A DNA stretch of 32,000 nucleotides. Origin: Candidatus Auribacterota bacterium (GTDB lineage Bacteria > Auribacterota > UBA6266). The DNA lies in assembly GCA_023136205.1 (NCBI GenBank), contig JAGLRQ010000063.1, positions 6,204 to 38,203 on the forward strand, in the 5' to 3' direction. Below the pieces are notes generated by a model that was not told the origin of the DNA, did no database searches, and saw only the letters and a list, made by a program, of their open reading frames with translations. This document shows, one piece after another, positions 7,333 to 29,311 of the stretch; position 1 is the first letter of the stretch, and every line of letters begins with the position of its first letter. The position numbers and the translations under genes are program-made.

Positions 7333-7450
7333 GGTAATCGTCAATCGGTGACGGCTAAAAAGACGTAACCGAAAAACGATAACCGATACGGGCATCGTAA
7401 CCGAAAAACGATAAACGATACGGGTTGCGTAACCGAAAGACGAATAAATA
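7333..7450. repeat. D-type direct repeat, left copy (includes 32-nt tandem unit CGTAACCGAAAAACGATAACCGATACGGGCAT x ~2.7)
   Basis: 7333-7418 aligns with 7836-7927: 22 identical nt, a 6-nt indel, then ~64 nt with 2 mismatches. Confidence 0.9.
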
Positions 7451-7840
7451 GTGGAAAAAAAGATCACAAGTTTCAGAGACTTAGATGTTTATCAAGGAAC
7501 TTATGCTTCAATGTTAAAAGTAATGAAGGAAATCGTTCCAAAGTTACCGGAACGTGAGAAATATGATTTAAAAGATCAGCTTAGTAGATCAAGTAAATCC
7601 ATTCCAAGGCTAATAGCTGAAGGATATGCAAAGAAACATCAAAAAGCAGGTTTTCAAAAATATATTGATGATGCAATGGCTGAATGTAATGAGACTGTAG
7701 TGAGTCTTTGTCAATCAAGAGATATTTATCCTGAAAATGTTGATATTAATTTGTGTGAAGAGTTAATAGATGATTACGATAAAGCTGGCCGTCAATTATA
7801 CAAGCTAGGTCAGGCATGGAATACATTTAAGAAAAGGTAA
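7451..7840 (+). CDS. Four-helix-bundle protein (23S rRNA intervening-sequence protein family, TIGR02436/PF05635-like)
   Basis: 129 aa. FRDLDVYQ N-terminus and the ...RSSKSIPRLIAEGYAKK... pattern are typical of the family. GTG start. The stop codon lies inside the right D repeat. Confidence 0.75.
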   Translation: MEKKITSFRDLDVYQGTYASMLKVMKEIVPKLPEREKYDLKDQLSRSSKSIPRLIAEGYAKKHQKAGFQKYIDDAMAECNETVVSLCQSRDIYPENVDINLCEELIDDYDKAGRQLYKLGQAWNTFKKR

Positions 7841-7927
7841 TCGTCAATCGGTGACGGTGACGGCCAAATAGACGTAACCGAAAAACGATAACCGATACGG
7901 GCATCGTAACCGAAAAACGATAAACGA
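7836..7927. repeat. D-type direct repeat, right copy
   Basis: See the left copy. Begins GGTAATCGTCAATCGGTGACGG, whose TAA is the stop of the four-helix-bundle ORF. Confidence 0.9.
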
Positions 7928-7944
7928 AAAACCTAGGAGCTTAT

Positions 7945-9003
7945 ATGGAAAAAAATTCTAAAATATACATAGCCGGCCACGATGGCCTGGTCGGTTCCGC
8001 CCTTACAAGAAAATTAAAAGCATCTGGTTATCAGAATATAACTACAAGAACCCTTAAAGAGCTTGATCTTACACGACAGAAAGACGCCGAAGATTTTTTT
8101 GAGAAAGAAAAACCCGAATATGTATTCTTAGCCGCGGCTAAAGTAGGCGGCATACTCGCCAACAGCACCTATAAAGCGGAATTCATATACCAGAATATAA
8201 TGATTGCCGCGAATGTAATACATTCAAGCTATAAATTTGGTGTTAAAAAACTGCTTAATATGGGTTCATCCTGTATATATCCAAAATTAGCGCCGCAACC
8301 GTTAAAAGAAGAATATCTTTTGACCGGAGAGTTAGAACCTACAAACGAACCTTATGCGATTGCCAAGATTTCAGCAATAAAACTGTGCGGATATTATAAT
8401 GAGCAATATGGAACAAATTTTATCTCCGTTATGCCCACTAACCAATATGGCCCAAATGATAATTTTAACCTGAAAACATCACATGTTTTACCCTCTATGT
8501 TAAGGAAGTTTCACTTAGCAAAATTATTATCAGAAGGCAAGTATGATGATATACTCAGCGATTTAAATCTTCCCCCTGAATCTCAAATCTCAAATCTCAA
8601 ATCCGTTGACAGTTTGCTTGCTGATGTTGGCATAGCTGCTCAATCTATTACTCTATGGGGAAGCGGGAGCCCCTACAGAGAATTTCTCTACGTTGATGAT
8701 ACTGCAGAAGCATGTGTTTTTTTAATGCAAAAATATGACGCCAAAGAAATTGGCGAATTTGTGAACATTGGGTCAGGTAAGGATATTCAACTTAAAGAAC
8801 TTGCTAATTTAATAAAACAAATTGTGGGATTTAAAGGTGAAATACAATGGGATACTGCAAAGCCCGATGGTACGCCGAAGAAGCTTTTGGATGTTGAGAG
8901 AATGAATAAATTGGGGTGGAAGGCAAAGGTTAGGTTGGAGGATGGGATTCGGATGGTGTATGAGGGTTACGTGACAAAAAGTACTGAACTCCGACGAAAT
9001 TAA
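7945..9003 (+). CDS. fcl: GDP-L-fucose synthase (GDP-4-keto-6-deoxymannose 3,5-epimerase/4-reductase)
   Basis: KIYIAGHDGLVGSAL, YAIAKISAIKLC (YxxxK) and WGSGSPYREFLYVDD are collinear with E. coli Fcl. Carries an extra ~30-aa insertion relative to it. Confidence 0.9.
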   Translation: MEKNSKIYIAGHDGLVGSALTRKLKASGYQNITTRTLKELDLTRQKDAEDFFEKEKPEYVFLAAAKVGGILANSTYKAEFIYQNIMIAANVIHSSYKFGVKKLLNMGSSCIYPKLAPQPLKEEYLLTGELEPTNEPYAIAKISAIKLCGYYNEQYGTNFISVMPTNQYGPNDNFNLKTSHVLPSMLRKFHLAKLLSEGKYDDILSDLNLPPESQISNLKSVDSLLADVGIAAQSITLWGSGSPYREFLYVDDTAEACVFLMQKYDAKEIGEFVNIGSGKDIQLKELANLIKQIVGFKGEIQWDTAKPDGTPKKLLDVERMNKLGWKAKVRLEDGIRMVYEGYVTKSTELRRN

Positions 9004-9093
9004 AAAAATTAGGGAAATGACAGAAAATTTAGAAAAACAGTGTTATTCAAATGAAGATTGGTAACCATAACCTAAAATTAGCGAATATTTCTT

Positions 9094-10434
9094 ATGTCTA
9101 TAATTAACTTTGTCAAAAAGAAACTTAACAATCTGATTAGTGACAAGAAATTTGAAGAGATTTTACACGGTGGAGCTTTGAGTCTAAGCGCAAAAGTTCT
9201 CGGAGTAACAATTGGAATATTTTCTAATATAATTGTTGCCAGATACTACGGCCCTGAAATAATGGGAATAGTCGCTATTTTAAATTCTTTTTTTGCAATT
9301 GCCGTACTTTTTAGCTTGATGGGAATGAATGTATCGCTATTGAGATTGATACCCGAGTACATAGCTAAATTTTCATATTTTTCAGCGTATAATGTTTATA
9401 AAAAAATCCTAAAAACTGCTGTTTTTTTATCGTTAATAGTTGCGGCATTGCTGTTTTTTTCTTCTGATTTTATAGCGTCTAATATCTTTAATAAAAGTCA
9501 TTTATCTATTTTGTTTGCAGTTGCTGCTATTTTTTTAATCGGGAAAACTCTTGTGCAGATAAATACTAATACGATTAGAGCTTTAAAAAACATAAAACTT
9601 TATGCTTTTGCTCAAATTTTACCAAACTTGGTGAATTTCTTTTTTTTGGCCCTGTTAACTTCCTTGTTTTACCAAAAATATAACCCGATATATATACAAT
9701 TCTTAATAATTATTGTTGGTACTTTGGCGACTGCGTATATGGTAAAAAAACTTTTCTGTTCGAAAATTGAAAACGGAAAACCGGCAGAAAAAATTTCTTA
9801 CCATAAAATTTTCAGCATATCTTCCCCTATGTTTTTAACCGCAACAATGCATTTAGTGATTTCGCAAACCGATATAGTTATGCTGGGAATCATGAAAAGT
9901 GAAGCTGATGTGGGAGTTTATAGCGTTGCGGTTAAGCTTGCTTTATTAACAAGTGCTATTTTAATTGCCTTTAATACTATCATCGCGCCCAAGTTTTCTG
10001 AATTATATCATTCCGAAAAAATAGATGAATTAGCGCATGTTGCCAAAAAATCCGCGAAATTAATATTCTGGATAACTGCTCCAATTTTAATTGTTCTTAT
10101 GGCCTTTGGCAAGGGGATATTAAGCGTATTTGGAGATAAGTTCGTAGTCGCATATTGGGCGTTATTTTTTTTAATAATAGGGCAATTTGTAAATTCAGCG
10201 GCTGGTTCTGTAGGATACTTGCTTAATATGACCGGCCATCAAATAGCATTTAGAAATATAGTTTTTGCCGCGGGAATTTTAAATATTATGTTAAATTACT
10301 TTTTAATTCCTGTTTATGGAATATACGGAGCGGCTATTGCCAGTATGATTTGTATAAGTTTATGGAATATAGCTGCCTCGATTTATGTAAAAATAAAGTT
10401 TGGATTTAGGATAGCGTATGTGCCATTTTGTTGA
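9094..10434 (+). CDS. wzx: Wzx-like oligosaccharide flippase (MOP superfamily)
   Basis: 446 aa polytopic membrane protein with the typical size and pattern of polysaccharide biosynthesis flippases, inside a glycan operon. Confidence 0.7.
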   Translation: MSIINFVKKKLNNLISDKKFEEILHGGALSLSAKVLGVTIGIFSNIIVARYYGPEIMGIVAILNSFFAIAVLFSLMGMNVSLLRLIPEYIAKFSYFSAYNVYKKILKTAVFLSLIVAALLFFSSDFIASNIFNKSHLSILFAVAAIFLIGKTLVQINTNTIRALKNIKLYAFAQILPNLVNFFFLALLTSLFYQKYNPIYIQFLIIIVGTLATAYMVKKLFCSKIENGKPAEKISYHKIFSISSPMFLTATMHLVISQTDIVMLGIMKSEADVGVYSVAVKLALLTSAILIAFNTIIAPKFSELYHSEKIDELAHVAKKSAKLIFWITAPILIVLMAFGKGILSVFGDKFVVAYWALFFLIIGQFVNSAAGSVGYLLNMTGHQIAFRNIVFAAGILNIMLNYFLIPVYGIYGAAIASMICISLWNIAASIYVKIKFGFRIAYVPFC

Positions 10435-10466
10435 AATAAGGCAGACAAAACCAGGAAATAGCTTAG

Positions 10467-11291
10467 ATGAATAAAGCATTTAATCTCTTGAAAACAGAAA
10501 TTAAAAAAGTGACAGGACTTGGCACAGTTCCGGGCAGATATCTTACAATTTTTCCTGACGACGTCTTTCTTGTTTCCTATCCAAGATCGGGAAATACATG
10601 GACAATATTTTTGTTGGGAAATTACTTGTTTAATACGCAAATAAATTTTTATAACTATAACAAAGTTTTTCCCAGCATATACAAATTTAATGCTGCTCAG
10701 TTATCGCAAATGAAAAGGCCGCGTATAATAAAAAGTCATGAAGGATTAAATAAAAAATATCCGAAAGTGATTTATTTATTAAGAGACCCTAGAGATGTTT
10801 GTATTTCATATTATTTTTATCAGAAAAAAAATAAAGAAATAACTATTCCTCTTGAAACCTATGTCGAAAAATTTATCCATGGCACTAATTCTCCATATGG
10901 AGAATGGAAAAAACATGTATATGGTTGGATAAATAATAGAAATAAGATTAAAAAAGGTTTTATGTTTTTTAGATATGAAGATTTAAAAAAGAATACATCT
11001 AATGAATTGAAGAAAATGATTAAGTTTTTAGGGTATGAAATTGATGAAAAAAAAATAAATGATGCAGTAGTAAACTCAAGTTTTGACAGTATGAGAAGGT
11101 TGGAAACAAAGCAAGAAGAAGAGGTTAGTTTTCTAAAAAAATCAGATAAGGAGATAAAGTTTATAAGAAGTGGCAAGAGTGATTTTATGGAATATTTTAA
11201 GAATTTTGATACAAGAATAGTAGAAAAGTTTAAAACCGCTTTTGATGAGTCTTTATTAAAGTTGGGGTATGAAAATGATGCAACTTGGTAA
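10467..11291 (+). CDS. PAPS-dependent sulfotransferase
   Basis: YPRSGNTWTIFLL resembles the 5'-PSB loop (PKSGTTW-like) and RDPRDVCISYYF the 3'-PB motif (RxPxDxxxS). Confidence 0.8.
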   Translation: MNKAFNLLKTEIKKVTGLGTVPGRYLTIFPDDVFLVSYPRSGNTWTIFLLGNYLFNTQINFYNYNKVFPSIYKFNAAQLSQMKRPRIIKSHEGLNKKYPKVIYLLRDPRDVCISYYFYQKKNKEITIPLETYVEKFIHGTNSPYGEWKKHVYGWINNRNKIKKGFMFFRYEDLKKNTSNELKKMIKFLGYEIDEKKINDAVVNSSFDSMRRLETKQEEEVSFLKKSDKEIKFIRSGKSDFMEYFKNFDTRIVEKFKTAFDESLLKLGYENDATW

Positions 11292-12078
11292 ATTTTTTTT
11301 ACGGAACACATCTTGGTATTATTTATACAGATATTTAAAGTATTTACAAGAATTTGGAGTTTCCAATAGGTGTATAAATTGCCCAGAAAAAGACATTGTT
11401 GTATGCGGCATGCCTCGATCCGGATCCACTCTTTTGTACAATATATTAAAAATAATCTTAACAAAAACATTAGAAATGGAAGACGGGTTTTGTTTTGTCG
11501 AAAAAGAATATACAAACAAAATGAATAATCAAAATATTTACCACCTAAGGAAGATACATATATTCTCGTTTTTGTTGGCTAAAAGAATAAAAACAGATAA
11601 AACAATAGGCTTTTTTACGCATCGAGACATACGAGATGTTATTGTTTCTTTAATACAGAAAAAGTGGATTACCGATTTTGACGAGTTTATAGAAAGTGGA
11701 AGATTGCATAGAATTGTTTACACTTCCTTGCTATATGCAAAGACTAAAAATATGCATGTTTTTAGCTATGATGAATTGTTGCATAATAAAGAGGAAGCTA
11801 TGAGACGCGTCTTAAGAATATTAAATCTCGAACTGGATACTACATTAATTGAGCATCTAATAAAAGAAACCTCAATAGGAAATACTCAACGTAAGATAGC
11901 TCAAAATAAATATATTATAAAATCGGATAAAGTTATTTACAATCCGGCAACAGGCTTACATAAAAATCATATCCAAGATCCTCGTACAGGAAAATGGAAA
12001 GAATTTCTTTCACGAGAACAAATAAAAATAGTAAATAAAATTGCAAAAGAATATATATATTTTTTTAATTATGAGTAA
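11269..12078 (+). CDS. Sulfotransferase family protein (second, divergent)
   Basis: CGMPRSGSTLLYNIL (P-loop-like PSB) and THRDIRDVIVSL (3'-PB-like). Start uncertain (ATG 11269, 11275 or 11278). Confidence 0.65.
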   Translation: MKMMQLGKFFLRNTSWYYLYRYLKYLQEFGVSNRCINCPEKDIVVCGMPRSGSTLLYNILKIILTKTLEMEDGFCFVEKEYTNKMNNQNIYHLRKIHIFSFLLAKRIKTDKTIGFFTHRDIRDVIVSLIQKKWITDFDEFIESGRLHRIVYTSLLYAKTKNMHVFSYDELLHNKEEAMRRVLRILNLELDTTLIEHLIKETSIGNTQRKIAQNKYIIKSDKVIYNPATGLHKNHIQDPRTGKWKEFLSREQIKIVNKIAKEYIYFFNYE

Positions 12079-12100
12079 TTAACTTATCTGTGGAGATAAA

Positions 12101-13567
12101 TTGTTAAAATTATTTTTGTCAACTGCAATGGCATTCTTTTTTGGGTTTTTATTTACGGCAAATTACTATTACGCAATAGTAATACTGGCGTTAGGTGCTT
12201 TAGCTTTATTATCTTTTTCCAAAAAGAATTATTTTTTAGTGCTGCTACCGTTTATAATTAGTTCAAGTTTTTTTGGATTTTTGCCTCGCCCTTTTGCCAT
12301 ACGAGGTCTATTTCAACAAGATGACATTGCTTTGCTTTGTCTATTATTGGGGGCAATATTTCTTTATGTTTTTTCCCAACAACAAGACGATAGAAGTGGT
12401 ATTGTTTTTCCCGCGACACCATTTATTCAAAAAAATAAGTTTTTAGTTATGTTTTTTTTGGCATTTTTAATTTTTGTTTTATTTTTTTCATGGATTAAAT
12501 ATGGTCAAATTATTCAATCTTTTAAGGTTTTTCGAGGAATTTTTAGGTATCTCTCCATTCTGCCGTTTATGTATATACTTTTTCGAATAAGGCATAAAAA
12601 TATAGAAAAATTAATCAATTGTATTGAAGTTATAACAATAATTTTATCCGTATGTTATATTTTGGATTTTGGTTTTGGAATAAAAATATTTAACATACAG
12701 TCCCATATAGAAACTTCATTTTATGGGGTGGATATTACTCGAAACTTCTTGGCAAGACCTTATTTTTTATATTTTGTGCTATTGAGATTAATATTAAGGG
12801 GAAAATACAAAAAGTATCATATTATAGGAATATTTTCTATAGTGCTTGTTTTTTTTCTTTCTTATACTAGAAATAGAATTTTTTCATTAATATTATTTTC
12901 TACGGTAGCAATGATTATTTGCAATAGGAAGTATACAAAAAATATCTTAAGTCTTGTGAAAACCAGTGTAATGACTTCTGTCTCCATTTTAATATTAGGA
13001 GGTGTCATTTACACTGTTTTTAATACACAGTTAGGCTATTTAAGCCGCCGCTTTGATAAGGGTTTTTCTGCCTCTTCAATCAGCGAAGACTCAAACCTTC
13101 TATTACGGAAAAATATTATTTTAAGCAGGGCGAAAAAGGTTTTAGCAGTAAACCCTATCACTGGCTTAGGATATTTACACCCTGAGACAGGGGGGGGTTT
13201 TTATCCAGGCTTGTTTGTTAGAAAATCGGATGACTATGGTAGTGCTTTAGTAGGGGACCAATCTTGGGGTAATCTTATTGTAATGATTGGGTTTGGAGGA
13301 AGTTTTTTGTTCTTATTGATGTTGTTTTTCCCGATTATAATGCTAATCCGGAAAAAGTGTTTTTTAAAACAAAATATTACGTTAATTGCTGTATTTTTGG
13401 CATTGCTTGATATGGTTTTGCTAAATGCTTTCTTTAGTAACGTTTTTCTTAAGGAAGTTCTAAAAATTAGCTTTTATTATGCATTAATTATTTATTATGC
13501 CAATTCTTATCTTTTGGGAAGCAACAATCGTAGTAATACTTATTTGTTAATAAGGAATGAAGAATGA
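12101..13567 (+). CDS. Wzy-like O-antigen/EPS polymerase or ligase-family membrane protein
   Basis: 488 aa with more than 10 hydrophobic segments. SYTRNRIFSLILF region resembles the Wzy_C/O-antigen ligase core, followed by a large loop. TTG start with GGAG upstream. Confidence 0.55.
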   Translation: MLKLFLSTAMAFFFGFLFTANYYYAIVILALGALALLSFSKKNYFLVLLPFIISSSFFGFLPRPFAIRGLFQQDDIALLCLLLGAIFLYVFSQQQDDRSGIVFPATPFIQKNKFLVMFFLAFLIFVLFFSWIKYGQIIQSFKVFRGIFRYLSILPFMYILFRIRHKNIEKLINCIEVITIILSVCYILDFGFGIKIFNIQSHIETSFYGVDITRNFLARPYFLYFVLLRLILRGKYKKYHIIGIFSIVLVFFLSYTRNRIFSLILFSTVAMIICNRKYTKNILSLVKTSVMTSVSILILGGVIYTVFNTQLGYLSRRFDKGFSASSISEDSNLLLRKNIILSRAKKVLAVNPITGLGYLHPETGGGFYPGLFVRKSDDYGSALVGDQSWGNLIVMIGFGGSFLFLLMLFFPIIMLIRKKCFLKQNITLIAVFLALLDMVLLNAFFSNVFLKEVLKISFYYALIIYYANSYLLGSNNRSNTYLLIRNEE

Positions 13568-14412
13568 AAAACATATTAATATCAATAATAACCCCTTCAT
13601 ATAACCAGGCGAAGTTTATTAGAAGAACTCTTGATAGTGTTTTACTTCATCAAAATCATGTAAACATAGAGCATATTGTTGTTGATGGTTATTCTTCTGA
13701 CGGGACATTAGAAATTTTAAAAGAGTATAAAAACAGATATCCTGACAAATTTTCTTATATATACGAAAAAGATTCAGGGCAGTCAAATGCTATAAATAAA
13801 GGGTTTAAAAGGGCTACGGGCGATATTATTGGATGGATAAATTCTGATGATTACTACGAAAAACATATTTTTATAGACGTAGTAAAAGAATTTAATGATC
13901 CTTCTGTTGCGTGGATTATTGGAAATGTTATCTCAACGTATGAAGGCATTAACAAAATGGAAAAAATAGTATCCCGTAAGATAACGTATCAGAATTTATT
14001 AAAAAATCCTGATATTGTAGCACAGCAAGGGGTATTTTTTAGGAGGGGTATTTTAGAGGCCGTTGGCGGATGGGATGATAGTTTCTATATGGTTATGGAT
14101 TATGATTTGTGGATTCGTTTATCAAAGGTTGCAGATCCTAAAATGATAAATAAATATTGGGGATATTTTACGCATCATTCCAATTCCAAAACATTAGGAA
14201 AAACGAAACGTATACAAATGGAAGAGATTATGCACATCCTTAAACGAGAAAATGTTAAATATTTGCAGCGGCAAATGGCTTTGTCTAAAAAGAGATTTTA
14301 TTATTATAAACAAAAACTGAAACATTTGCTTATCAAGTTGCGAATAATAGATAAAAAGTATTATTCTTATCCATGTTCTTCGAAGCGATGGGAAATATGG
14401 AAAAACAAATGA
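13564..14412 (+). CDS. Family 2 glycosyltransferase
   Basis: ISIITPSYNQAKFIRRTLDSV...VVDGYSSDGT...INSDD is the classic GT2 N-terminal pattern with DxD. ATGA overlap with the upstream gene. Confidence 0.85.
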   Translation: MKNILISIITPSYNQAKFIRRTLDSVLLHQNHVNIEHIVVDGYSSDGTLEILKEYKNRYPDKFSYIYEKDSGQSNAINKGFKRATGDIIGWINSDDYYEKHIFIDVVKEFNDPSVAWIIGNVISTYEGINKMEKIVSRKITYQNLLKNPDIVAQQGVFFRRGILEAVGGWDDSFYMVMDYDLWIRLSKVADPKMINKYWGYFTHHSNSKTLGKTKRIQMEEIMHILKRENVKYLQRQMALSKKRFYYYKQKLKHLLIKLRIIDKKYYSYPCSSKRWEIWKNK

Positions 14413-14437
14413 TTGGTTTGAAAGAAATGTATTGTAT

Positions 14438-15574
14438 ATGAAAGAAAATAAAAAAAATATTTTGTTTATTATTCATGACATATCGAATGCAGGCATAGAA
14501 CGAGTATGTTTGAATATATCAAGAGGAGTTAATAAAGAAAAATACGGTTTGTTTGTATTTCTTTATCAGCCGAAAGGACAAAACACTTTTGATATTAATC
14601 TGCCGGAGAATGTTATATATTTCAAGAGAGATATTCAAAAAGTAAGGAATAAAATATGGCGGGCAATGTGTTTGTTTTTTCAAATTGTGATGAGTATAAA
14701 AAAATCGAATGCTGATCTTGTTGTTTCGTTTATTCCTTTTGTTAATTCGATTGTTTTTATTATATGTGCTTTTATGCGTTGTAAACATATTGCTACTCAA
14801 CATAATTTACTATCTCGTGATATTACGTTGTTAAAAGGAAAAGCTATTCTATATAACTCGTTATTGTGGAAGTTTGTTTATAAGAGGTTACAGTATTTGG
14901 TTGTGGTCTCGAATTCAATAAAAGAAGATTTGGTCTCGAATTTTGGAGTTAAGGAGAATAAGGTTAAGGTTATATACAATGGAATTGATTTAGGACAAAT
15001 AAAGCAATCTACTAAAAATAAACCGAACATTACTATTGCTAAATATATAATTTATGTAGGACGGATAGAGTATCAGAAGTCAGTTGGTACGCTTATTCAG
15101 GCTTTTTCAATAGTAAGAAAACAAGCGAATGATTTGAATCTAATTATTATGGGGGAAGGGTCGCTTTTAGGGGAAATAAAAAAAATGGCAAAAAATATAG
15201 GATGTATGCAAACTATACATTTTATAGGTTTTCAATCAAATCCATATATTTACATGAAGAACGCCCTATGTTTAGTATTACCGTCATTGTTTGAGGGTTT
15301 TGGATGTGTAATAACGGAAGCTATGGCTTGCGGTACTCCTGTCATTGCAACAAATATTGAAGGGCCAAAAGAAATTATTACACATGGTCACAATGGGTTA
15401 CTTTTTACGCCTAAAAATTATGAAGAATTAGCAACCGAGATAGAGGAAGTTATTAACAATAAAGATTTAAGAAAAACTTTAATATCTAATGGGCTAATGA
15501 CAGTGAAGAAATATACAAATATGCACGAACAATACGATGAGTTATTTGATTCAATAATAAAAAATAAAATTTAG
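14438..15574 (+). CDS. GT4-type (GT-B) glycosyltransferase
   Basis: EGFGCVITEAMACGTPVIATNIEGPKEIITHGHNGLL is the E-X7-E GT4 C-terminal motif. ATG 14438 preferred to TTG 14432. Confidence 0.85.
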   Translation: MKENKKNILFIIHDISNAGIERVCLNISRGVNKEKYGLFVFLYQPKGQNTFDINLPENVIYFKRDIQKVRNKIWRAMCLFFQIVMSIKKSNADLVVSFIPFVNSIVFIICAFMRCKHIATQHNLLSRDITLLKGKAILYNSLLWKFVYKRLQYLVVVSNSIKEDLVSNFGVKENKVKVIYNGIDLGQIKQSTKNKPNITIAKYIIYVGRIEYQKSVGTLIQAFSIVRKQANDLNLIIMGEGSLLGEIKKMAKNIGCMQTIHFIGFQSNPYIYMKNALCLVLPSLFEGFGCVITEAMACGTPVIATNIEGPKEIITHGHNGLLFTPKNYEELATEIEEVINNKDLRKTLISNGLMTVKKYTNMHEQYDELFDSIIKNKI

Positions 15575-15584
15575 GAGTAATGAT

Positions 15585-16460
15585 ATGAATATAAAAATAA
15601 TTGCAGAAACTGGATGCAATCATAAAGGAAGCATGGAAATAGCGAAAGAGATGATTAATGTGGCAAGTATTTTTTGTAAAGCGGATTGCGTGAAATTTCA
15701 AAAACGTAATTTGCGGGAATTATTGTCTGAAGAGGAATATAATTCACCACATCCAAATGTGAACAATTCATATGGAAAGACATATGGCGAGCATCGGGAG
15801 GTATTAGAGCTAGATTTGGATCAGCATCGCCAATTGAAGAAGTGGTGTGATGAAATGAACATTATGTATTCGTGTTCAGTCTGGGATTTGACATCAACAA
15901 AGGAAATTGTTTCATTGCAACCAAAATTAATTAAGATTCCCTCAGCATGTAATTTAAATAAAGATATTCTGGAATATTTGTGTGAATACTATGAGGGGGA
16001 AATTCATGTTTCTTTTGGAATGACATCACAAGAGGAAGAAAAGAAGATCATTGATTTTTTCAAAGAGCGAAAAAGAAATACTGATTTGGTTATTTATAGT
16101 TGTACATCCGGATACCCAGTACCTTTTGAGGATGTTTGCCTTTTAGAAATTAGGAGATTGTTACGTGATTATTCTCAGGATGTGAAGTCGATAGGTTTCT
16201 CGGGGCATCATTTAGGGATTGCTGTTGATGTAGCAGCTATTACATTAGGCGCTTGCTGGGTGGAGCGGCATTTTACACTAGATCGGACATGGAAAGGAAC
16301 AGACCATGCGGCTTCTCTTGAGCCCGAGGGAATAAGACGCCTTGTTAGAAATGCAAAAGCTGTTAGTTTAGCTTTGACAAATAAGAGATCAGAAATCTTA
16401 GATATTGAAAATGTACAACGTAAAAAGCTAAAAGAGGGACAAATAAAATGGGAAAAATAG
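15585..16460 (+). CDS. NeuB-family nonulosonic acid (9-phosphate?) synthase, short form without C-terminal SAF domain
   Basis: IIAETGCNHKGSMEIAKEMI...CVKFQKR and GFSGHHLGIAVDVAAITLGACWVERHFTLDR match NeuB TIM-barrel motifs. Only 291 aa. Confidence 0.8.
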   Translation: MNIKIIAETGCNHKGSMEIAKEMINVASIFCKADCVKFQKRNLRELLSEEEYNSPHPNVNNSYGKTYGEHREVLELDLDQHRQLKKWCDEMNIMYSCSVWDLTSTKEIVSLQPKLIKIPSACNLNKDILEYLCEYYEGEIHVSFGMTSQEEEKKIIDFFKERKRNTDLVIYSCTSGYPVPFEDVCLLEIRRLLRDYSQDVKSIGFSGHHLGIAVDVAAITLGACWVERHFTLDRTWKGTDHAASLEPEGIRRLVRNAKAVSLALTNKRSEILDIENVQRKKLKEGQIKWEK

Positions 16461-17605: not shown

Positions 17606-17608
17606 GAA

Positions 17609-18817: not shown

Positions 18818-18895
18818 ACGAATCTTTTTTTCCATCAATTGGCAAGTATTAATATTTGTGCTTGTTTTGTTTTTCTATGTAGGGGGGAATGTGAA

Positions 18896-19873: not shown

Positions 19874-19878
19874 AAATT

Positions 19879-23116: not shown

Positions 23117-23190
23117 TATATTTTACTATAACATACACAATATTATTATGCCATGAATTGATATCAACATTAATTTTCAGAGAAGTGGAT

Positions 23191-24081
23191 ATGAATTTCA
23201 AAGAGACAATTAAAAATATGAGGAAGGTTAATCGATTTGACTGGGTGCTTTTTTTAGCTATGGTAATAATGTTTTCTCGTGTGTTTTACCGTTTAGCTGC
23301 TATAGGATGGAAAACCGCTGATTATACCCACGCTTATTTTATTTTACCGATTTCACTCTGGTTTATCTTTAAGAAGAGAAATGCATTAGTTAAAGCTGAA
23401 GGGGTTAGTAAAAGTGGCGCAACCCTTTTTATTTTAGGAGTTGCATCATATCTTTTTGCCGCGCTTAATGAATTTATGTTTTTAGAAGGGTTTTCTTTTG
23501 TTCTTATGATGTGGGCAGTATTTAGATTAAGATTCACAAAAGAGTCTTTCCAGAAAATATTATTTCCTCTTGCTTATCTCTTGTTTCTTGTTCCGCCGCC
23601 CTCACTTGCCATTGATACAGTAACACTTCCTTTAAAGAAAATAAGCACTTACGGAAGTTATTTTTTATTTAAACTGTTCCGGTTTTCGGTTGAAGTTCAT
23701 GGAGCTATATTAAAAGTAGGAGAACATGAGCTTTTTATAGCTGATGCCTGCAGTGGTTTCCGTTCAATGGTAACTTTGCTTGCCCTAGGTGCAGTATATG
23801 CCTATGTTCAGAATACGTCTTTGTTGAAAAAATGGATAATCTTTCTTTCCGTTATCCCCTTGGGAATTATGGGCAATATTTTAAGAATTACTATTACAGG
23901 CTGTCTTTCTTATTTTTGCGATCCTAAATACGCGGAAGGATTTTTCCACAATTTTTCAGGAATGGTGCTTTTTGTTTTCACGACAATAGGGCTTATGATA
24001 CTAACTGAATTAATTTGCAAAAAACAGCCGCCGAATACACCGAAAGATATCGAGAAAAGAGTAAAAACTACAAATAAATAG
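23191..24081 (+). CDS. Exosortase (EpsH/Xrt family), short form
   Basis: Polytopic. ADACSGFRSM (catalytic Cys), GNILRI (Arg) and FFHNFSG (His) conserved. Next to PEP-CTERM genes and EpsI. ATG 23191 preferred to TTG 23158. Confidence 0.85.
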   Translation: MNFKETIKNMRKVNRFDWVLFLAMVIMFSRVFYRLAAIGWKTADYTHAYFILPISLWFIFKKRNALVKAEGVSKSGATLFILGVASYLFAALNEFMFLEGFSFVLMMWAVFRLRFTKESFQKILFPLAYLLFLVPPPSLAIDTVTLPLKKISTYGSYFLFKLFRFSVEVHGAILKVGEHELFIADACSGFRSMVTLLALGAVYAYVQNTSLLKKWIIFLSVIPLGIMGNILRITITGCLSYFCDPKYAEGFFHNFSGMVLFVFTTIGLMILTELICKKQPPNTPKDIEKRVKTTNK

Positions 24082-24129
24082 TGATAATAGGGACAGATCA
24101 GATTTATTGGCGCGCAAAGATAATTTATG

Positions 24130-24187
24130 ACCTGTAATTAATAAACAGGTCTTTCCTGTTGACAAAGTTGTATCTAATAAATAAAAT
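24130..24187 (+). promoter_or_regulatory. Candidate promoter TTGACA-N17-TAAAAT with upstream hairpin/palindrome ACCTGT-N9-ACAGGT
   Basis: TTGACA 24159-24164, TAAAAT 24182-24187, palindrome 24130-24150, 40-nt leader with AGAGGA RBS before ATG 24228. Duplicated at 27104-27161, where the -10 reads TCAAAT. Confidence 0.45.
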
Positions 24188-24227
24188 TAATTTTTTAAAA
24201 CTAACTTTTAAAAGAGGATGGGGTATT

Positions 24228-24788
24228 ATGAAAAGCATTAAATGGGCTATGGTTTTACTTACAGTATTAGTTTTGAGTACTCCTAATGCTAATGCGGGTA
24301 CATACAGTGATAGAGTAAATTTTACCCCTGGTACATATCTTGGCTGGCCTGCTCCTTGGGAACATACTATATCAGAAATTCCGTCGGGTGAAGTTGTGGT
24401 TTCAGCAAATATTGAATTGGAAGCAAAAGTTTGGGATTGGGGCTCCGCGTACGGAGGGTTTCCTTTGCTTGCCAGTGACTCGAATGTTTTTGTTTTGAAT
24501 AATGAGCATGGCGTTTCAGCGTTAACTACATGGACACATCCAAGCTCGAGCTCTTTTTACACCATTACTGCCGCTTTAAAGCCTAATCAAGTCGATTGGC
24601 TGGCCAATGATAACAATATACATTTTGAAGTGTATCCGTGGAATGGTGCTTATTATTTAGATCACGCAACTTTAAACGTAATAACAACCCCCGAACCCAT
24701 ATCGATGGTACTATTTCCTGTCGGCGCCGCTGTTTTGGGATTTTTCAAAAGAAGAAAAATCAAAGAGAAATTTTTTAGGAAGAAATAA
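24228..24788 (+). CDS. PEP-CTERM sorting-signal protein (copy 1 of duplicated gene)
   Basis: Signal peptide ...STPNANA-G. C-terminal TTPEPISMVLFPVGAAVLGFFKRRK is PEP, TM helix and basic tail. ~96% aa identity to 27204-27767. Confidence 0.85.
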   Translation: MKSIKWAMVLLTVLVLSTPNANAGTYSDRVNFTPGTYLGWPAPWEHTISEIPSGEVVVSANIELEAKVWDWGSAYGGFPLLASDSNVFVLNNEHGVSALTTWTHPSSSSFYTITAALKPNQVDWLANDNNIHFEVYPWNGAYYLDHATLNVITTPEPISMVLFPVGAAVLGFFKRRKIKEKFFRKK

Positions 24789-24906
24789 CCTGATTTACAT
24801 CTTGCCGCGGCCGGTTTACTTCTGGAAATGGTTTGATCAAAACTGTCTTCTTATGGTGTTGGGCGAATACAGGCCCTTTTAAAATAACGGGGCAATAGAG
24901 ATTGTG

Positions 24907-24966
24907 AGCCGCCAAATACACCGAAAGACACCGAGAAAAGAGTAAAAACTACAAATAAATAGTATT
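24907..24966. repeat. Duplicate of the exosortase gene 3' end (direct repeat of 24027-24086)
   Basis: agccgccaaatacaccgaaagacaccgagaaaagagtaaaaactacaaataaatagt versus agccgccgaatacaccgaaagatatcgagaaaagagtaaaaactacaaataaatagt, about 4 mismatches in ~57-60 nt. An in-frame stop lies just upstream of the duplicate. Confidence 0.9.
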
Positions 24967-24990
24967 AAATATTTTCAAAAAATATAATAA

Positions 24991-25078
24991 TTTTTCGGTG
25001 CAATTCGGTGTATTCGGTGGCTAAAAGAAGGTTTGTATCTGTATCAGTGCAATTTAGCATATTCGGCGGCTAAAAAAA
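24991..25078. repeat. E-type direct repeat, left copy (TTCGGTG(T/C)A(A)TTCGG(T/C)G words + GGCTAAAA + TTGTATCTGTATC)
   Basis: Aligns with 25461-25533 (tttttcggtg[c/t]aattcgg[t/c]gtattcgg[t/a]ggctaaaa..gtttgtatctgtatc[a/g]gt..). Confidence 0.9.
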
Positions 25079-25080
25079 CA

Positions 25081-25473
25081 ATGAGAATTGCCCAAAAGAA
25101 TATTTTGAATAAAGATCTAAGCGATAAAATTATTGGGGCCGCTCTTAATGTATATAACATATTGGGGCGTGGCTTCTTAGAGAAAGTGTATGAAAACGCG
25201 TTATGTCTTGAGTTAAAAAGATCCAATATTCCCTATGAATGTCAGAAGCAAATAAAAGTGTTGTACCGGGAACAAATGGTAGGAGATTATATTTCTGATA
25301 TTGTTGTCGATAATAAAATTATTTTAGAAGTTAAAGCAACGCTTGAAACCCCGGGTTACCATGAAGCTCAGATACTCAATTATCTAAAAGCAACAGGGTT
25401 TAATTTGGGATATTTGTTAAACTTTGGGAGTAAAGACAAACTGTATTTTAAACGATTTGTTTTTTCGGTGTAA
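25081..25473 (+). CDS. GxxExxY protein (TIGR04256 / PD-(D/E)XK_3-like)
   Basis: GRGFLEKVYENAL carries the GxxExxY signature. DIVVDNKIILEVKA is a D...E-x-K nuclease-like core. ATG 25081 chosen because the TTG 25033 extension (MYLYQ...) is encoded by the repeat and recurs upstream of epsI. Confidence 0.8.
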   Translation: MRIAQKNILNKDLSDKIIGAALNVYNILGRGFLEKVYENALCLELKRSNIPYECQKQIKVLYREQMVGDYISDIVVDNKIILEVKATLETPGYHEAQILNYLKATGFNLGYLLNFGSKDKLYFKRFVFSV

Positions 25474-25533
25474 TTCGGCGTATTCGGAGGCTAAAAAAGT
25501 TTGTATCTGTATCGGTACTTTCAGCATCTAAAA
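25461..25533. repeat. E-type direct repeat, right copy
   Basis: Starts inside the last codons of the GxxExxY ORF (..ttt tcg gtg taa). Confidence 0.9.
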
Positions 25534-25545
25534 AGGTATCTATCA

Positions 25546-26259
25546 ATGGATAAAAAATCTTTAATTCGAGATATAATAATGGTTCTACTAATGCTTGGCG
25601 CGGCATTGTATGTATTTACTCACCCGGCGGAGAAACAATCACCGGAAGAAAAAATAAACCTGTCTTCCCTTATCCCTGCTGCATTCAATGATTGGATAAG
25701 CAAAACCTATGACACCTCTGATTACAAAGATAAATGGCAGTCCATAAACGAGCTTCTTGTAAGAGATTATTATGAAAAAGGCAAAGGAAGAAGATTGGGG
25801 TTTATCCTGGAATACAGCAGTGACTTAAGAAAAAACTTCAGCTTGCATTTCCCTGAAATTTGTCATCGGTCAGGGGGGAACGAAGTAATCTTTTTAGAGC
25901 CTTTAGAAATAGATTTGGGTAATGGCAAGACTATAAAGGCAAAATGTTTGTATATAAAAGGAATCGAAGAAGGAATAGATAAAATAGTTGTATACTGGTT
26001 AACAATAGATAATAAGCAATATTACAGGACTTTTTTTATTAAGTTAGACCAAATGTTAAGCGGCCTTCTTAAAAAGTCAAAAAGGGGTTTTTTGGTAAGA
26101 GTTGATTACTCTGAAGATGTTGAATATACAGAAAAATGTATCGAAAACGCGAGAAAAGTCATAGCTAATTTTATTAAAGACCTCTACAATACACTTCTAA
26201 CCACCCATTCCACTCCGGGGGTGGAATTGGAGATGTTATTTGGGAGAAACACGGAATAA
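25546..26259 (+). CDS. epsI: EpsI-family exosortase-associated protein
   Basis: N-terminal TM helix followed by a periplasmic domain. HFPEICHRSGG fits the EpsI H-x-PE-x-C motif. ATG 25546 chosen. Confidence 0.7.
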   Translation: MDKKSLIRDIIMVLLMLGAALYVFTHPAEKQSPEEKINLSSLIPAAFNDWISKTYDTSDYKDKWQSINELLVRDYYEKGKGRRLGFILEYSSDLRKNFSLHFPEICHRSGGNEVIFLEPLEIDLGNGKTIKAKCLYIKGIEEGIDKIVVYWLTIDNKQYYRTFFIKLDQMLSGLLKKSKRGFLVRVDYSEDVEYTEKCIENARKVIANFIKDLYNTLLTTHSTPGVELEMLFGRNTE

Positions 26260-26272
26260 AGGAGGCTTTTAA

Positions 26273-27061: not shown

Positions 27062-27203
27062 AGAAAAATAAAGGGACCAGATAATAGGAGAAGATAATTT
27101 ATAAGCTGTAATTAATAAACAGGTCTTTCCTGTTGACAAAGTTGTATCTAATAAATCAAATTAATTTTTTTTAAAACTAACTTTTAAAAGAGGATGGGTT
27201 ATT

Positions 27204-27767
27204 ATGAAAAGCATTAAATGGCCGATGGTTTTACTTACAGTATTAGTTTTGAGTACTCCTAATGCTAATGCGGGGACATACAGTGATAGAGTAAATTTTA
27301 CTCCTGGTACATATCTTGGCTGGGCTGCCCCTTGGGAACATACTATATCAGAAATTCCGTCGGGTGAAGTTGTGGTTTCAGCAAATATTGAATTGGAAGC
27401 AAAAGTTTGGAGTTGGGGCTCCGCGTACGGAGGGTTTCCTTTGCTTGCCAGTGACTCGAATGTTTTTGTTTTGAATAATGAGCATGGCGTTTCAGCGTTA
27501 ACTACATGGACACATCCAAGCTCGAGTTCTTTTTACACCATTACTGCCACTTTAAAGCCTAATCAAGTCGGTTGGCTGGCCAATGATAACAATATACATT
27601 TTGAAGTGTATCCGTGGGATGGAGCTTATTATTTAGATCACGCAACTTTAAACGTAATAACAACCCCCGAACCCATATCGATGGTACTATTTCCTGTCGG
27701 CGCCGGTGTTTTGGGATTTTTCAAAAGAAAAAAAATCAAAGAGAAATTTTTTAGGAAGAAATTATAA
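27204..27767 (+). CDS. PEP-CTERM sorting-signal protein (copy 2 of duplicated gene)
   Basis: Differs from 24228-24788 by 8 aa replacements and one extra C-terminal residue. Same upstream region duplicated from ~27092. Confidence 0.85.
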   Translation: MKSIKWPMVLLTVLVLSTPNANAGTYSDRVNFTPGTYLGWAAPWEHTISEIPSGEVVVSANIELEAKVWSWGSAYGGFPLLASDSNVFVLNNEHGVSALTTWTHPSSSSFYTITATLKPNQVGWLANDNNIHFEVYPWDGAYYLDHATLNVITTPEPISMVLFPVGAGVLGFFKRKKIKEKFFRKKL

Positions 27768-27839
27768 AGGGGTCAACTCCCTTTTATTTTGACATATGAC
27801 TACCTGCCTTATCAAAAAAAGGGAGTTGACCCCTTATAA
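27764..27839. repeat. F-type hairpin repeat, left copy (15-bp perfect inverted repeat, 37-nt loop)
   Basis: AGGGGTCAACTCCCT 27768-27782 pairs with AGGGAGTTGACCCCT 27820-27834. The loop contains TTGACA (27789-27794). The whole element recurs at 29236-29311. Confidence 0.9.
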
Positions 27840-27852
27840 AATAGGAGAAGAG

Positions 27853-28395
27853 ATGAAAAATATTGTTATAGGATTGCTTATCTGCGTTTTGTTAAGTATT
27901 CCGGCTGGGGCCGAAGCTCAAGAAGAGTTTGAGTTGGGAATGGTTTACGAACAAGATAGTTCTTTTAATGTGCCGGGGTGGACATATGAATATGATGAAA
28001 CACCATGGGTGCATCTCTATAATCTTCCGATGGATACAAATCCGGATTTTTTCTTGATACGCTACGGTTGGCAGCATTATGCCAGTAATACTTGGGAGGA
28101 GGAAGAAGAGTTCGTTGAGTTTTGCGAGATGCCATATTATGGTGAATGGTGGAAGAGCCCTGAGAGATGGGATGATCCTATTAATCCTATAAGACAGTCA
28201 GGCGCGTGGTGGGTCGATGTTTCGGTTTCAGGGTTTTCTTATTCGGGTGAAATGGAGCTTTTATTTAGTGTCGAGAACTCGACTGAGTTTGATGTTAATG
28301 TGGCTCCTGAACCTGTAAGCAGTGTTCTTTTTGTAATAGGTGGTGCCTCTTTAGTGTTTTTTAGGTATAGAAAAAAGAAGAGTCGTAAAGGATAA
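27853..28395 (+). CDS. PEP-CTERM sorting-signal protein (small secreted domain)
   Basis: ATG 27853 with AGGAGAAG RBS. Signal peptide ...IPAGAEA. C-terminal VAPEPVSSVLFVIGGASLVFFRYRKKK. Confidence 0.8.
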   Translation: MKNIVIGLLICVLLSIPAGAEAQEEFELGMVYEQDSSFNVPGWTYEYDETPWVHLYNLPMDTNPDFFLIRYGWQHYASNTWEEEEEFVEFCEMPYYGEWWKSPERWDDPINPIRQSGAWWVDVSVSGFSYSGEMELLFSVENSTEFDVNVAPEPVSSVLFVIGGASLVFFRYRKKKSRKG

Positions 28396-28444
28396 TCCCA
28401 CTGTGGTGGGAAATAATAGAATTCCCACTTGACATATTTCCCAC
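28396..28444 (+). promoter_or_regulatory. Candidate TA operator/promoter: four TCCCAC half-sites
   Basis: Palindrome TCCCAC-TGTG-GTGGGA at 28396-28411, then TTCCCAC at 28422-28428 and 28438-28444, overlapping a weak TTCCCA-N17-TATATG promoter upstream of the AbrB-like gene. Confidence 0.4.
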
Positions 28445-28476
28445 TATATGGCATGCTTCAAGTGGAGGTGAGCGAA

Positions 28477-28797
28477 ATGGAAAGACATAAGGAAGAACTT
28501 ATTCATGAAAGATTTATACCCGCGGAAATAAAAACTCTGGACTCTAAAAATCGAATAAATCTGGGTGAGAAGATTTTAAAATTAATTTCAGGGGAAAAGA
28601 AAGCCGATGTCTATCAAGTTTTTGTTGGGGAGAAAGGAGATATCCTTTTGAGGCCCGCGGTTACTGTTCCAAGCTGTGAAGCATGGATTTATCGCAATCC
28701 AATCGTATTAAAAAAGATTCGGCAGGGATTAAGTGAGGCAAAACGGGGTAAGGTTGAAAAAGCGGAAGATATAAATACTTTTTTAGGGAAGATATGA
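28477..28797 (+). CDS. AbrB/MazE/SpoVT-fold antitoxin-like protein
   Basis: KTLDSKNRINLGEKILKLI...DILLRPAV fits a swapped-hairpin AbrB-type DNA-binding domain. GGAGGTG RBS before ATG 28477. 4-nt overlap with the downstream toxin gene. Confidence 0.6.
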   Translation: MERHKEELIHERFIPAEIKTLDSKNRINLGEKILKLISGEKKADVYQVFVGEKGDILLRPAVTVPSCEAWIYRNPIVLKKIRQGLSEAKRGKVEKAEDINTFLGKI

Positions 28798-29090
28798 AAT
28801 TTGTTTTATATTTTACCCCCATGGCTAAAAAAACCTTAAAGGAATTAAAAGAAGATACTGGGCAAAAAAAGAGGTACCAATCAGTTACAAAAGCTTTAAA
28901 GTTCTTGAACGAAAATCCAAAACATCCTGGTTTACAAACCCACCGGTATTATTCATTGCAAGGCCCGCATGATGAGAAAATTTTTGAGGCATATGCCGAA
29001 CAAAAAACACCCGCGGCTTATAGAATTTTCTTTTTTTACGGCCCTTGTAAAGATGGTATAACTATTTTTGCGATCACACCGCATCCGTAA
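28794..29090 (+). CDS. RelE/ParE-superfamily toxin-like protein
   Basis: 98 aa. The pattern ...AKKTLKEL...LKFLNENPKHPGLQTHRY..L.G......EAY....YRIFFFY....ITIFAITPHP is typical of RelE/ParE-fold toxins. Coupled to the upstream antitoxin. Confidence 0.55.
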   Translation: MKFVLYFTPMAKKTLKELKEDTGQKKRYQSVTKALKFLNENPKHPGLQTHRYYSLQGPHDEKIFEAYAEQKTPAAYRIFFFYGPCKDGITIFAITPHP

Positions 29091-29235
29091 TAATCCATTC
29101 CACCCCGGGGGTGGAACGTGATTTCCCCAAAAGAGTAGTTATCATTGATTTTTGTGCAATAATGCGTCAATCTATGGTTGCTTTCTATGCAGTAAAACCT
29201 ATATCTATCATTGCTTTTCTTGTATTTCATGTTCA

Positions 29236-29311
29236 ATAAAGGGGTTAACTCCCCTTCATTTTGACATATAACTACCTACCTTATCAAAAAAAGGGAGTTG
29301 ACCCCTTATAA
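29236..29311. repeat. F-type hairpin repeat, right copy (left arm degenerated)
   Basis: ~67/73 identity with 27764-27839. Arms are AGGGGTTAACTCCCCT 29240-29255 and AGGGAGTTGACCCCT 29292-29306. Confidence 0.9.

Follow-up and report, generated by a model that had tools for sequence, protein, structure and literature searches.

How do small genes come to stand between pairs of long direct repeats, inside an operon and in its orientation, where no recombinase gene is in sight? The question is raised by a stretch of 32,000 nucleotides from a Candidatus Auribacterota bacterium (assembly GCA_023136205.1, contig JAGLRQ010000063.1, positions 6,204 to 38,203; hereafter the window, with positions counted from its first letter and features on the plus strand unless stated). 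A preliminary description of this DNA had recognised four independent units, each a small cargo between direct repeats: D, around a gene for a four-helix-bundle (4HB) protein; xrt, at the 3′ end of an exosortase gene; E, around a GxxExxY gene; and F, around a PEP-CTERM gene and a supposed toxin-antitoxin pair. It took the repeats to be unrelated between pairs and private to their cargo, and suggested an undescribed mechanism of cassette insertion. The four pairs are present where they had been placed (55-92 bp, 89-97% identity), and self-BLAST together with repeat finding gives 97% over 73 bp for D (7346-7418 and 7855-7927), 94.7% at a period of 881 for the xrt-3′ repeat (24026-24082 and 24907-24963), 89% at a period of 470 for E (24991-25045 and 25461-25513) and 93.4% at a period of 1472 for F (27764-27839 and 29236-29311). 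The D pair reaches back to 7333 and 7836 with a 6-bp GGTGAC indel, giving periods of 503 and 509. Sequence inspection likewise bore out the reported placing of stop codons, with that of the cargo in the first bases of the downstream repeat (D and E) or that of the preceding gene at the start of the upstream repeat or within it (F and xrt), and no integrase or transposase domain occurs in any called gene of the window and the 8 kb on either side of it (47.7 kb). Our reading, which we hold to be on balance the probable one, is that the window carries layers of short hairpin-forming intergenic repeat units and of small selfish genes travelling with them, rather than one uniform cassette system.

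Before any of this is given biological meaning, the arrangement itself must be real. Metagenome assembly could in principle manufacture such structures by joining strain haplotypes at repeats; several short sibling contigs do stop inside the D repeat (L003-L005 break in D unit 2), as expected of repeats, and one short contig, L026, looks chimeric. Against this, contigs from no fewer than six samples of one study, built with two assemblers, reproduce the full arrangement at 99.9-100% identity, and the copies of the repeats differ from one another by 3-11%. Six or more sample assemblies, made independently, thus agree on the arrangement, which speaks against an artefact of assembly, and we give that explanation practically no credence. 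A look-up of the population by exact proteins found only occupied or repeat-truncated contigs.

The junction between the exosortase gene xrt (23158-24081) and epsI (25546-26259) is the most telling. In the two closest relatives of xrt, 72-73% identical to it, xrt and epsI overlap by 11-14 nt, and one of the two is syntenic upstream as well, with WecG and 810-aa carbohydrate-binding module (CBM) genes; in the window, the two genes are 1464 nt apart, with a PEP-CTERM gene and a GxxExxY gene between them. It follows that the units are genuine insertions, made into operon junctions. Homology of xrt to its relatives ends at ...ELICKKQ, exactly where the xrt-3′ repeat starts, and it is the repeat that provides the stop codon of the gene together with the 17 codons before it. 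The empty xrt|epsI junction of the closest relatives, with its overlapping genes, holds no copy of the repeat, and a contig search with xrt for sister genomes returned only relatives at 28-34% identity and no close empty site at the DNA level.

What was inserted has a definite order: left arm, PEP-CTERM gene, left arm, loop, right arm, partial right arm, GxxExxY gene, right arm, epsI. Copy 1 of the left arm (24026-24087; AGCCGCCGAATACACCGAAAGATATCGAG..., a forward array of CACCGA motifs) is followed by a segment, 24088-24906, with the PEP-CTERM open reading frame (ORF; 24228-24788) and its own TTGACA-17-TAAAAT promoter-like site. Then comes a hairpin unit, 24907-25027, made of copy 2 of the left arm (24907-24968), an AT-rich loop and the right arm (24991-25027; TTCGGTG three times, ...GTGGCTAA); the interval 24905-25030 folds as a stem of ~28 bp (-42.8 kcal/mol, z -9.6). 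The GxxExxY gene (25081-25473; 130 aa, PF13366 / TIGR04256, a PD-(D/E)XK nuclease) has its stop codon inside copy 2 of the right arm (25461-25513, the downstream E repeat), after which the epsI leader begins. By BLAST, AGCCGCCAAATACACCGAAAGACACCGAG of the xrt-3′ repeat and TTCGGTGCAATTCGGTGTATTCGGTGGCT, the core of the E repeat, are reverse complements. Thus the count of four independent units does not hold, for the xrt-3′ and E repeats pair with each other within a single hairpin and the xrt cargo is a copy of a PEP-CTERM gene that still stands downstream: in self-BLAST, 24117-24786 is a 672-bp copy, 96.9% identical, of 27091-27762, which belongs to the paralogous gene with ORF 27204-27767, and the promoter-like site is included in the copy. 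The positions at which the two PEP-CTERM copies match vary between sample assemblies, which hints at ongoing gene conversion.

The repeats of this junction are not static either. Strain variants from two samples (L022, 1-220, and L024, 1-210) carry, relative to window positions 24900-25090, one extra E-type unit of ~47 nt upstream of the GxxExxY gene, 96% identical to the downstream copy, where the resident upstream copy is 89% identical; array copy number thus varies within the population. Separately, the contig L026, 749 bp and from the same study, was compared with window positions 24769-25393; it is identical up to 25393 and then continues into the 3′ end and downstream flank of another GxxExxY paralogue, being either a chimeric assembly across paralogues or a real recombinant.

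Is the bond between gene and repeat a peculiarity of this contig? We fetched 80 unrelated metagenome loci with GxxExxY genes, 59 of them with sufficient flank, and compared 200-300 nt on each side. Direct flanking repeats (27-211 nt, 82-97% identical) are found in 22 of the 59 and inverted ones in 24; either type is present in 41 (69%), as against 4 of 70 neighbouring control ORFs (5.7%; Fisher p=5e-15), and removal of one redundant pair leaves 40 of 58. The link between small gene and flanking repeat that had been proposed from the window alone is therefore general, and it extends to isolates: finished isolate sequences with a like pattern are Bacteroides finegoldii (radA|GxxExxY|FAD gene), Bernardetia (ade|GxxExxY|manC) and Fusobacteria ZRK30, the last of the direct type. 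A tblastn search of plasmids gave only two matches for 4HB and six for GxxExxY, of use as isolate controls alone. All the flanking repeats belong to one motif class, (A/G)ACAC(A/G)GA(T/G) every ~10 nt and its complement, hereafter CACNGA motifs, of which the window has the variant CACCGA / TTCGGTG. The forward motif is enriched 10-33-fold in the 150 nt 5′ of the GxxExxY start and peaks just before it; for the reverse motif, the 150 nt 3′ of the stop show a 10-20-fold enrichment, with the peak just after the stop.

The canonical layout is thus left array, ORF and inverted right array, 456-690 bp in total, and many of the element ends read TTAGCCAC...GTGGCTAA. Inverted ends (24/59) recall a DDE transposon or a miniature inverted-repeat transposable element (MITE), but they come with no short target-site duplication: among 26 elements, a flanking match of even 2 nt is seen in only two, and target-site duplication was rejected. 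At loci of the direct-repeat type, each flank is a whole left-plus-right unit and the ORF typically stops in the first bases of the downstream unit, which is exactly the layout first noticed at E and D. In 29 of 36 cases both neighbours point the same way as the gene, and the intergenic gaps have a median of ~70 nt. Solo units that lack the ORF lie close to elements in L040, L068 and L097, as does one of the 4HB type in L110. Duplication of an arm on both sides of another gene, as around the PEP-CTERM copy, recurs in L076. That JGI metagenome sequence has two GxxExxY elements in one 3.5-kb stretch (587-961 and 1545-2421); one sits exactly between a leuC-like stop codon and a leuD-like ribosome-binding site, with 36-nt inverted ends TTAACCGCAGATT...AATCTGTGGTTAA, and the other is laid out as arm, GxxExxY gene, arm, other ORF and inverted arm.

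The protein is in keeping with a small nuclease. Its model (pLDDT 93.7) is a minimal PD-(D/E)XK core that fold comparison places nearest Cas4 SSO0001 and lambda exonuclease, a likeness seen in fold comparison only, as a PDB sequence search with the GxxExxY profile gave no match, and D73, E83 and K85 are invariant in the family alignment. A small nuclease gene brings to mind free-standing homing endonuclease genes, for which a palindromic recognition site would leave inverted half-sites on either side of the gene. The likeness extends to the precise position between conserved genes, and the units without ORF could be intact targets; however, the 4HB family has the same architecture with no nuclease fold, and homing does not yield the direct-repeat layout. 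PF13366 is listed as a domain of unknown function with multiple transfers (PMC3424549).

The 4HB gene of D leads to the same place from an unrelated protein. It lies at 7451-7840 (129 aa; PF05635, E=1.5e-17; TIGR02436, E=1.4e-14), between gmd and fcl and not in a 23S rRNA helix. In D unit 1 (7333-7450), a left-end-like piece, GGTAATCGTCAATCGGTGACGG, is followed by AAAAAGACG and this by 2.7 copies of a 32-nt right-end unit, CGTAACCGAAAAACGATAACCGATACGGGCAT; D unit 2 (7836-7927), which contains the stop codon of the gene, has the same composition with 1.8 right-end units and ends 17 nt 5′ of the fcl start codon. The flanks are thus direct copies of a composite unit, in which pairing is only internal to each (z -2.8 to -3.4). 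Many homologues of the protein are 72-79% identical to it, some of them labelled as Omnitrophota or Elusimicrobia metagenome-assembled genomes, and since identity across phyla is as high as that of the best exosortase relative (73%), these values suggest that the 4HB gene has spread horizontally.

Moreover, the repeats appear to have travelled with it. The D repeat core ACGATACGGGCATCGT, 16-20 nt, is found again at the ends of foreign 4HB elements, with genes 71-77% identical, in three unrelated host contexts: mlaF|mlaD (L110), an unannotated gene pair (L114) and the neighbourhood of an acyl-CoA dehydrogenase gene (L124). All three read ...GGTTACGAAGCCCGTATCGGTAACG... 5′ of the 4HB ORF and the reverse complement, ACGTAACCG-N-ACGATACGGGCATCGTAACCG, 3′ of it; BLAST places the window D repeat at these loci in both orientations, and ten 4HB element ends, from both window D units and the three foreign contexts, have 16 invariant columns in common. 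In L110, a solo unit with no ORF (1517-1630) lies between mlaE and mlaF, at a distance of one gene 5′ of the occupied site mlaF|4HB|mlaD; its order is left end, AAAAGACG (the final nucleotides of the ORF) and right end, and the window D units are of like composition. In L124 (2001-2447), the 4HB stop codon has been lost, and the called 148-aa ORF runs through the right-end repeat and overlaps a convergent ABC-transporter gene. A profile search of viral contigs found no 4HB relatives.

The family connection is an old acquaintance from ribosomal RNA. The intervening sequences (IVSs) in the 23S rRNA genes of Leptospira and Coxiella are selfish elements, ~430 nt in length: a stem of 28 bp closes a loop that contains an S23p ORF, and RNase III cuts the element (PMC4990558). 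With D they have in common the protein family, the format of a selfish element of ~0.43-0.5 kb, and a sporadic distribution consistent with horizontal transfer. Their ORF stands in the loop between terminal inverted repeats, and inverted ends that bracket the ORF in this way are present in L110, L114 and L124 and in our positive control, a tblastn match in an Azospirillum plasmid within a 23S rRNA gene (Rfam LSU), where 19-nt inverted arms surround an ORF of the 4HB family. The differences are that the elements of the window lie between protein-coding cistrons and not in rRNA helices (Rfam at the gathering threshold has no match anywhere in the window, rRNA included), and that each side of their ORF bears a direct copy of a whole unit instead of one half of a single stem. 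4HB genes have been noticed before between cas genes (PMC3936711). To judge from these alignments, then, operon-embedded 4HB genes carry conserved IVS-like ends and leave derivatives without an ORF.

This evidence bears directly on another close published precedent. Furuta et al. 2010, citing an earlier comparison of H. pylori genomes (their reference 37), described "insertion with long target duplication" for restriction-modification units, with locus-unique repeats of 30-420 bp overlapping the 3′ end of the upstream gene (PMC2853133), and all four units of the window could be ascribed to one such process, integrase-less and duplicating a long, locus-specific host target. The likeness is considerable: no integrase or transposase, direct repeats longer than 30 bp, overlap with an upstream 3′ end, and a cargo that is often a nuclease. 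The xrt unit fits well, being a locally derived gene copy within a 57-62-bp duplication of the sequence at the insertion point, and F fits formally. But in that process the empty genome was shown to contain the repeat once, as host sequence, whereas the D core and the GxxExxY arrays are conserved beside homologous genes in unrelated hosts, and so are not host target sequence; besides, the xrt-3′ and E repeats are parts of one structure, and the A-type arrays described below are dispersed. Only the xrt unit with its PEP-CTERM copy, and possibly F, therefore answer to the published definition, and as an account of all four units we consider it unlikely. Compared across hosts, the D and E repeats are element-borne ends specific to a gene family, not derived from the target. 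The PEP-CTERM copy, set within its left-arm duplication just before a strong hairpin, is most plausibly the product of duplicative insertion at short range, either through template switching at a hairpin or through insertion of the long-target-duplication type. It also follows that the claim of an undescribed mechanism must be divided: true insertions and the absence of a linked recombinase stand, but integrase-less insertion between long repeats was already in print for restriction-modification genes.

The F unit comes next. Unit 1 (27764-27839) is 76 bp long, includes the stop codon of the preceding gene and has terminal inverted repeats of ~24 bp, TTATAAAGGGGTCAACTCCCTTTT, each arm being itself a small terminator-like hairpin (fold of the unit, -35.1 kcal/mol, z -7.4); unit 2 (29236-29311) is 93% identical to it and is followed by a bidirectional terminator-like palindrome at 29315-29356. 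Between them, the cargo (27853-29090) comprises a PEP-CTERM gene, 27853-28395, and two overlapping small ORFs, 28477-28797 and 28794-29090, with no family match. The AbrB and RelE labels proposed for these two found no support from Pfam, NCBIfam or PDB sequence search; the remaining family calls were sound, namely TIGR02436/PF05635, TIGR04256/PF13366, AbiEii/AbiEi and MNT/HepT, and also exosortase and EpsI. The small ORFs (28477-29090; 106 and 98 aa, with an ATGA overlap) are toxin-antitoxin-like by layout, and just 5′ of them, at 28395-28450, an operator-like TCCCAC repeat surrounds a TTGACA. Two tandem diverged PEP-CTERM paralogues on the minus strand (29385-30496) converge on the F unit; they contain 83% repeats (29384-29489 / 29992-30097 and 29719-29770 / 30336-30387), and a strong promoter-like site, TTGACA-18-TA..AT, goes with each of the two.

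Bacterial MITEs such as Correia elements are short intergenic units with terminal inverted repeats, and the F unit resembles them in its length of 76-80 bp, its ~24-bp terminal inverted repeats, an internal promoter-like TTGACA, terminator-like arms and an intergenic position. It differs in that two copies are known, that no target duplication, TA or other, is demonstrable and that no parent insertion sequence is known. F also brings to mind an integron-like cassette array without integrase (CALIN), with the hairpin units as attC sites, since it alone holds near-matches, GGTCAAC ... GTTGACC, each one mismatch from the attC R″/R′ consensus as judged by eye. More broadly, the small genes are promoter-less and co-oriented, each is followed by an imperfect palindrome at whose start the ORF stops, and the cargo includes toxin-antitoxin genes, all as in a cassette array. 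Yet no IntI is encoded in the 47.7 kb, the pairing in F continues beyond the putative R boxes, periodic motif arrays with no R″-L″/L′-R′ organisation make up D, E and A, and the canonical relatives carry their ORF inside the inverted arms, which is never so in integron cassettes. An integron origin is accordingly very improbable in our estimation.

A further layer of repeats belongs to a toxin-antitoxin island at the start of the window. An A-type array (units GCGAG/ACGAG, then CTCGTCC/ACGTCC) lies at 1939-2060 between a PLD-HTH gene and AbiEii. The AbiEi-MNT interval holds composite repeats at 3701-3937, with ACGAGATAC(GGC) units at 3701-3840 and an A-type array at 3839-3937, and the HepT-PHO4 interval holds another set at 4691-5187, with a TGGTGAC heptamer block at 4719-4756, an A-type array at 4836-5018 and a second heptamer block at 5111-5187. 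The intergenic regions of the island are composite homologues of one another, and the grammar of the A arrays is like that of the other units. A arrays recur in at least seven intergenic regions of the contig, including those beside wza, wzz and a second 4HB gene; with the D core recurring beside homologous genes elsewhere, this removes the idea that the repeats are unrelated between units and private to their cargo. The second 4HB gene (L014, 4678-5064, ~2.8 kb upstream of the window start; PF05635, E=9e-37) is of another subfamily; the end of wza overlaps the start of this gene, at whose own stop codon an A-type array sets in, and given a matching A array 5′ of wza, wza and this gene are likewise bracketed by repeats.

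These arrays bring up a more conservative view, that the repeats are regulatory or RNA-processing elements of the host (stabilisers like repetitive extragenic palindromic (REP) sequences, terminators, RNase III or protein-binding sites) that have spread or been duplicated locally, and the cargo genes are ordinary residents; the order of repeat, cargo and repeat would then be incidental and no sign of insertion. The A arrays adjoin the core genes wza and wzz as well as accessory genes, the F arms resemble terminators, array copy number varies as in a variable-number tandem-repeat locus, and the units fold better than shuffled sequences. Nevertheless, GxxExxY genes have flanking repeats 12 times as often as their neighbours do, each gene family keeps its own motif class from phylum to phylum, nothing interrupts xrt|epsI in relatives, and the solo unit retains a remnant of the 3′ end of the ORF. 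On this evidence we think the conservative view improbable.

Several features of the neighbourhood may be recorded here. The heptamer blocks of TGGTGAC type occur beside A arrays in three intergenic regions (4719-4756, 5111-5187 and L014 7089-7121) and resemble the STRR sequences of cyanobacteria. The PLD-HTH gene (753-1937), in which a PLD-family nuclease domain is fused to a C-terminal HTH (394 aa), lies between two AbiE modules and is possibly another defence or addiction gene of the island. The host operon (9094-20694 and L027 1-9200) is one for a sulfated polysaccharide of the sialic-acid type. It encodes several sulfotransferases, NeuB and a fusion of a CMP-sugar synthetase with a HAD phosphatase, and a cluster for PAPS synthesis follows just downstream; its GC content of 26-33% is unusually low in comparison with ~40% in the flanks.

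Elements of this size, with palindromic ends and no target duplication, might also be moved in trans. RAYT genes, which encode transposases of the Y1 HUH type, are flanked by inverted REPs, and the units of the window could be the ends of IS200/IS605-PATE or REP/RAYT-type elements, mobilised by a Y1 HUH transposase with the small genes as passengers. The absence of target-site duplication, the hairpin units in direct orientation at both ends of direct-repeat-type loci, the strict co-orientation and the existence of units without ORF are all as such a process would have it. Likeness to the REP/REPIN-RAYT system goes further, to short palindromic intergenic units, a gene between inverted copies of its cognate repeat (seen in the family loci) and ORF-less hairpin doublets. 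However, the GxxExxY protein is a PD-(D/E)XK nuclease and the other a four-helix bundle, neither with the HUH Y1 transposase fold, and the genes here occur in several copies and have passed from phylum to phylum. Among ~140 loci, which were not systematically scanned for it, no HUH gene was noticed, no conserved tetranucleotide was found at the left boundary, and the motif classes track the gene family, which would be unexpected of a passenger. We regard this explanation as remote.

What, then, would the process be? D and E, the latter together with the xrt-3′ repeat, would be copies of two widespread families of single-ORF elements of ~0.5 kb. One family would encode a 4HB protein, kin to the ORF of the 23S rRNA intervening sequences, and the other a minimal GxxExxY PD-(D/E)XK nuclease, each ORF being bracketed by arrays of a motif proper to the family (ACGATACGGGCATCGT / GTAACCG for 4HB; CACNGA with a period of ~10 bp for GxxExxY). 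These arrays would make up a left arm and an inverted right arm, with left-plus-right units also occurring in the absence of the ORF, and the appearance of repeat, cargo and repeat would come from ORFs that stand between full or partial units (unit-ORF-unit) and whose stop codon falls inside the downstream one. The insertion sites would be intercistronic junctions, gmd|fcl, xrt|epsI and wza|wzz, with orientation following the operon. Once in place, the repeat arms may serve as local substrates for duplication and recombination; in this manner the PEP-CTERM copy could have been put, from 3 kb downstream, beside the GxxExxY left arm, with a duplication of 57-62 bp of the arm. Movement itself would most likely proceed by recombination or replication template switching at the hairpin units, with no short target duplication, and the catalyst would be a host function or some trans-acting factor, not an integrase encoded alongside. 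Two of the routes suggested at the outset, recombination of a circle with ORF and repeat into a resident repeat and template-switch duplication, are compatible with both the unit-ORF-unit layout and the arm duplication around the PEP-CTERM copy. F and the toxin-antitoxin island would follow a similar logic of repeat, gene and repeat, with repeats that may be either borne by an element or duplicated from the target.

A number of observations pull the other way. The D and E ORFs of the window are flanked by a right arm 5′ and a left arm 3′, a circular permutation of the canonical left-ORF-right; such a layout is what a Campbell-type crossover between a circle with ORF and unit and a resident unit would give, but duplication of a resident unit at insertion would give it equally, and both are compatible with what is seen. 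Two unrelated protein families have one and the same architecture, so that neither is an obvious dedicated recombinase. The sampled population showed no empty/occupied polymorphism for any of the four units; within the 47.7 kb, the D, E and F repeats occur as local pairs only, with no dispersal seen there, and the evidence for F and the A arrays is confined to this contig. A 4HB gene of a different subfamily on a Nostoc plasmid has no repeats on its flanks. Finally, mismatches between the arms show no bias towards G-U wobble (47 vs 54), A:A oppositions dominate, and one and the same strand has A-rich spacers in the left arm and the right. The missing G-U bias and the same-strand A-rich spacers led us to reject a simple conserved RNA stem as the sole constraint; what is conserved is the inverted motif cores at helical-turn spacing, and these would fit arrays of protein-binding sites better than a perfect RNA stem.

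If the two families are taken together, a larger proposal can be framed, which we put forward tentatively and as possible rather than probable: GxxExxY (PF13366) genes and non-rRNA 4HB genes might form an undescribed, cross-phylum class of minimal mobile elements of ~0.5 kb. Each would consist of a single ORF between inverted arrays of a family-specific motif of 7-8 bp recurring every ~10 bp, would insert precisely between co-oriented cistrons with no target duplication, would leave hairpin units without ORF and would promote the capture of neighbours between long repeats, while the encoded nuclease or nucleic-acid binder would act on the arrays that flank its own gene. In the literature searched, we found no description of flanking repeats for GxxExxY genes or non-rRNA 4HB genes, and no link between GxxExxY genes and IVSs; the cross-phylum tie of GxxExxY genes to inverted CACNGA arrays thus appears to be undescribed. 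If true, the proposal would amount to an integrase-less way of remodelling operons, and it would connect rRNA intervening sequences with REP-like repeats and with insertions of the "long target duplication" kind.

There are practical consequences as well. Genes annotated as GxxExxY or as "four helix bundle / S23 ribosomal" are abundant, multi-copy and scattered through the capsule, cas, mla and leu operons of many phyla, and the family-specific arrays, with their ORF-less derivatives, supply defined DNA sites and hence a rule for finding both elements and empty sites. The repeats explain why assemblies break at these genes, and they warn annotators that such repeats are neither CRISPR-like nor target duplications. 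They also tie both families to the long-standing puzzle of how rRNA intervening sequences move. And if the arms really do drive the duplication-bounded capture of neighbouring genes, they would be a source of variation in surface-polysaccharide loci that needs no recombinase of its own.

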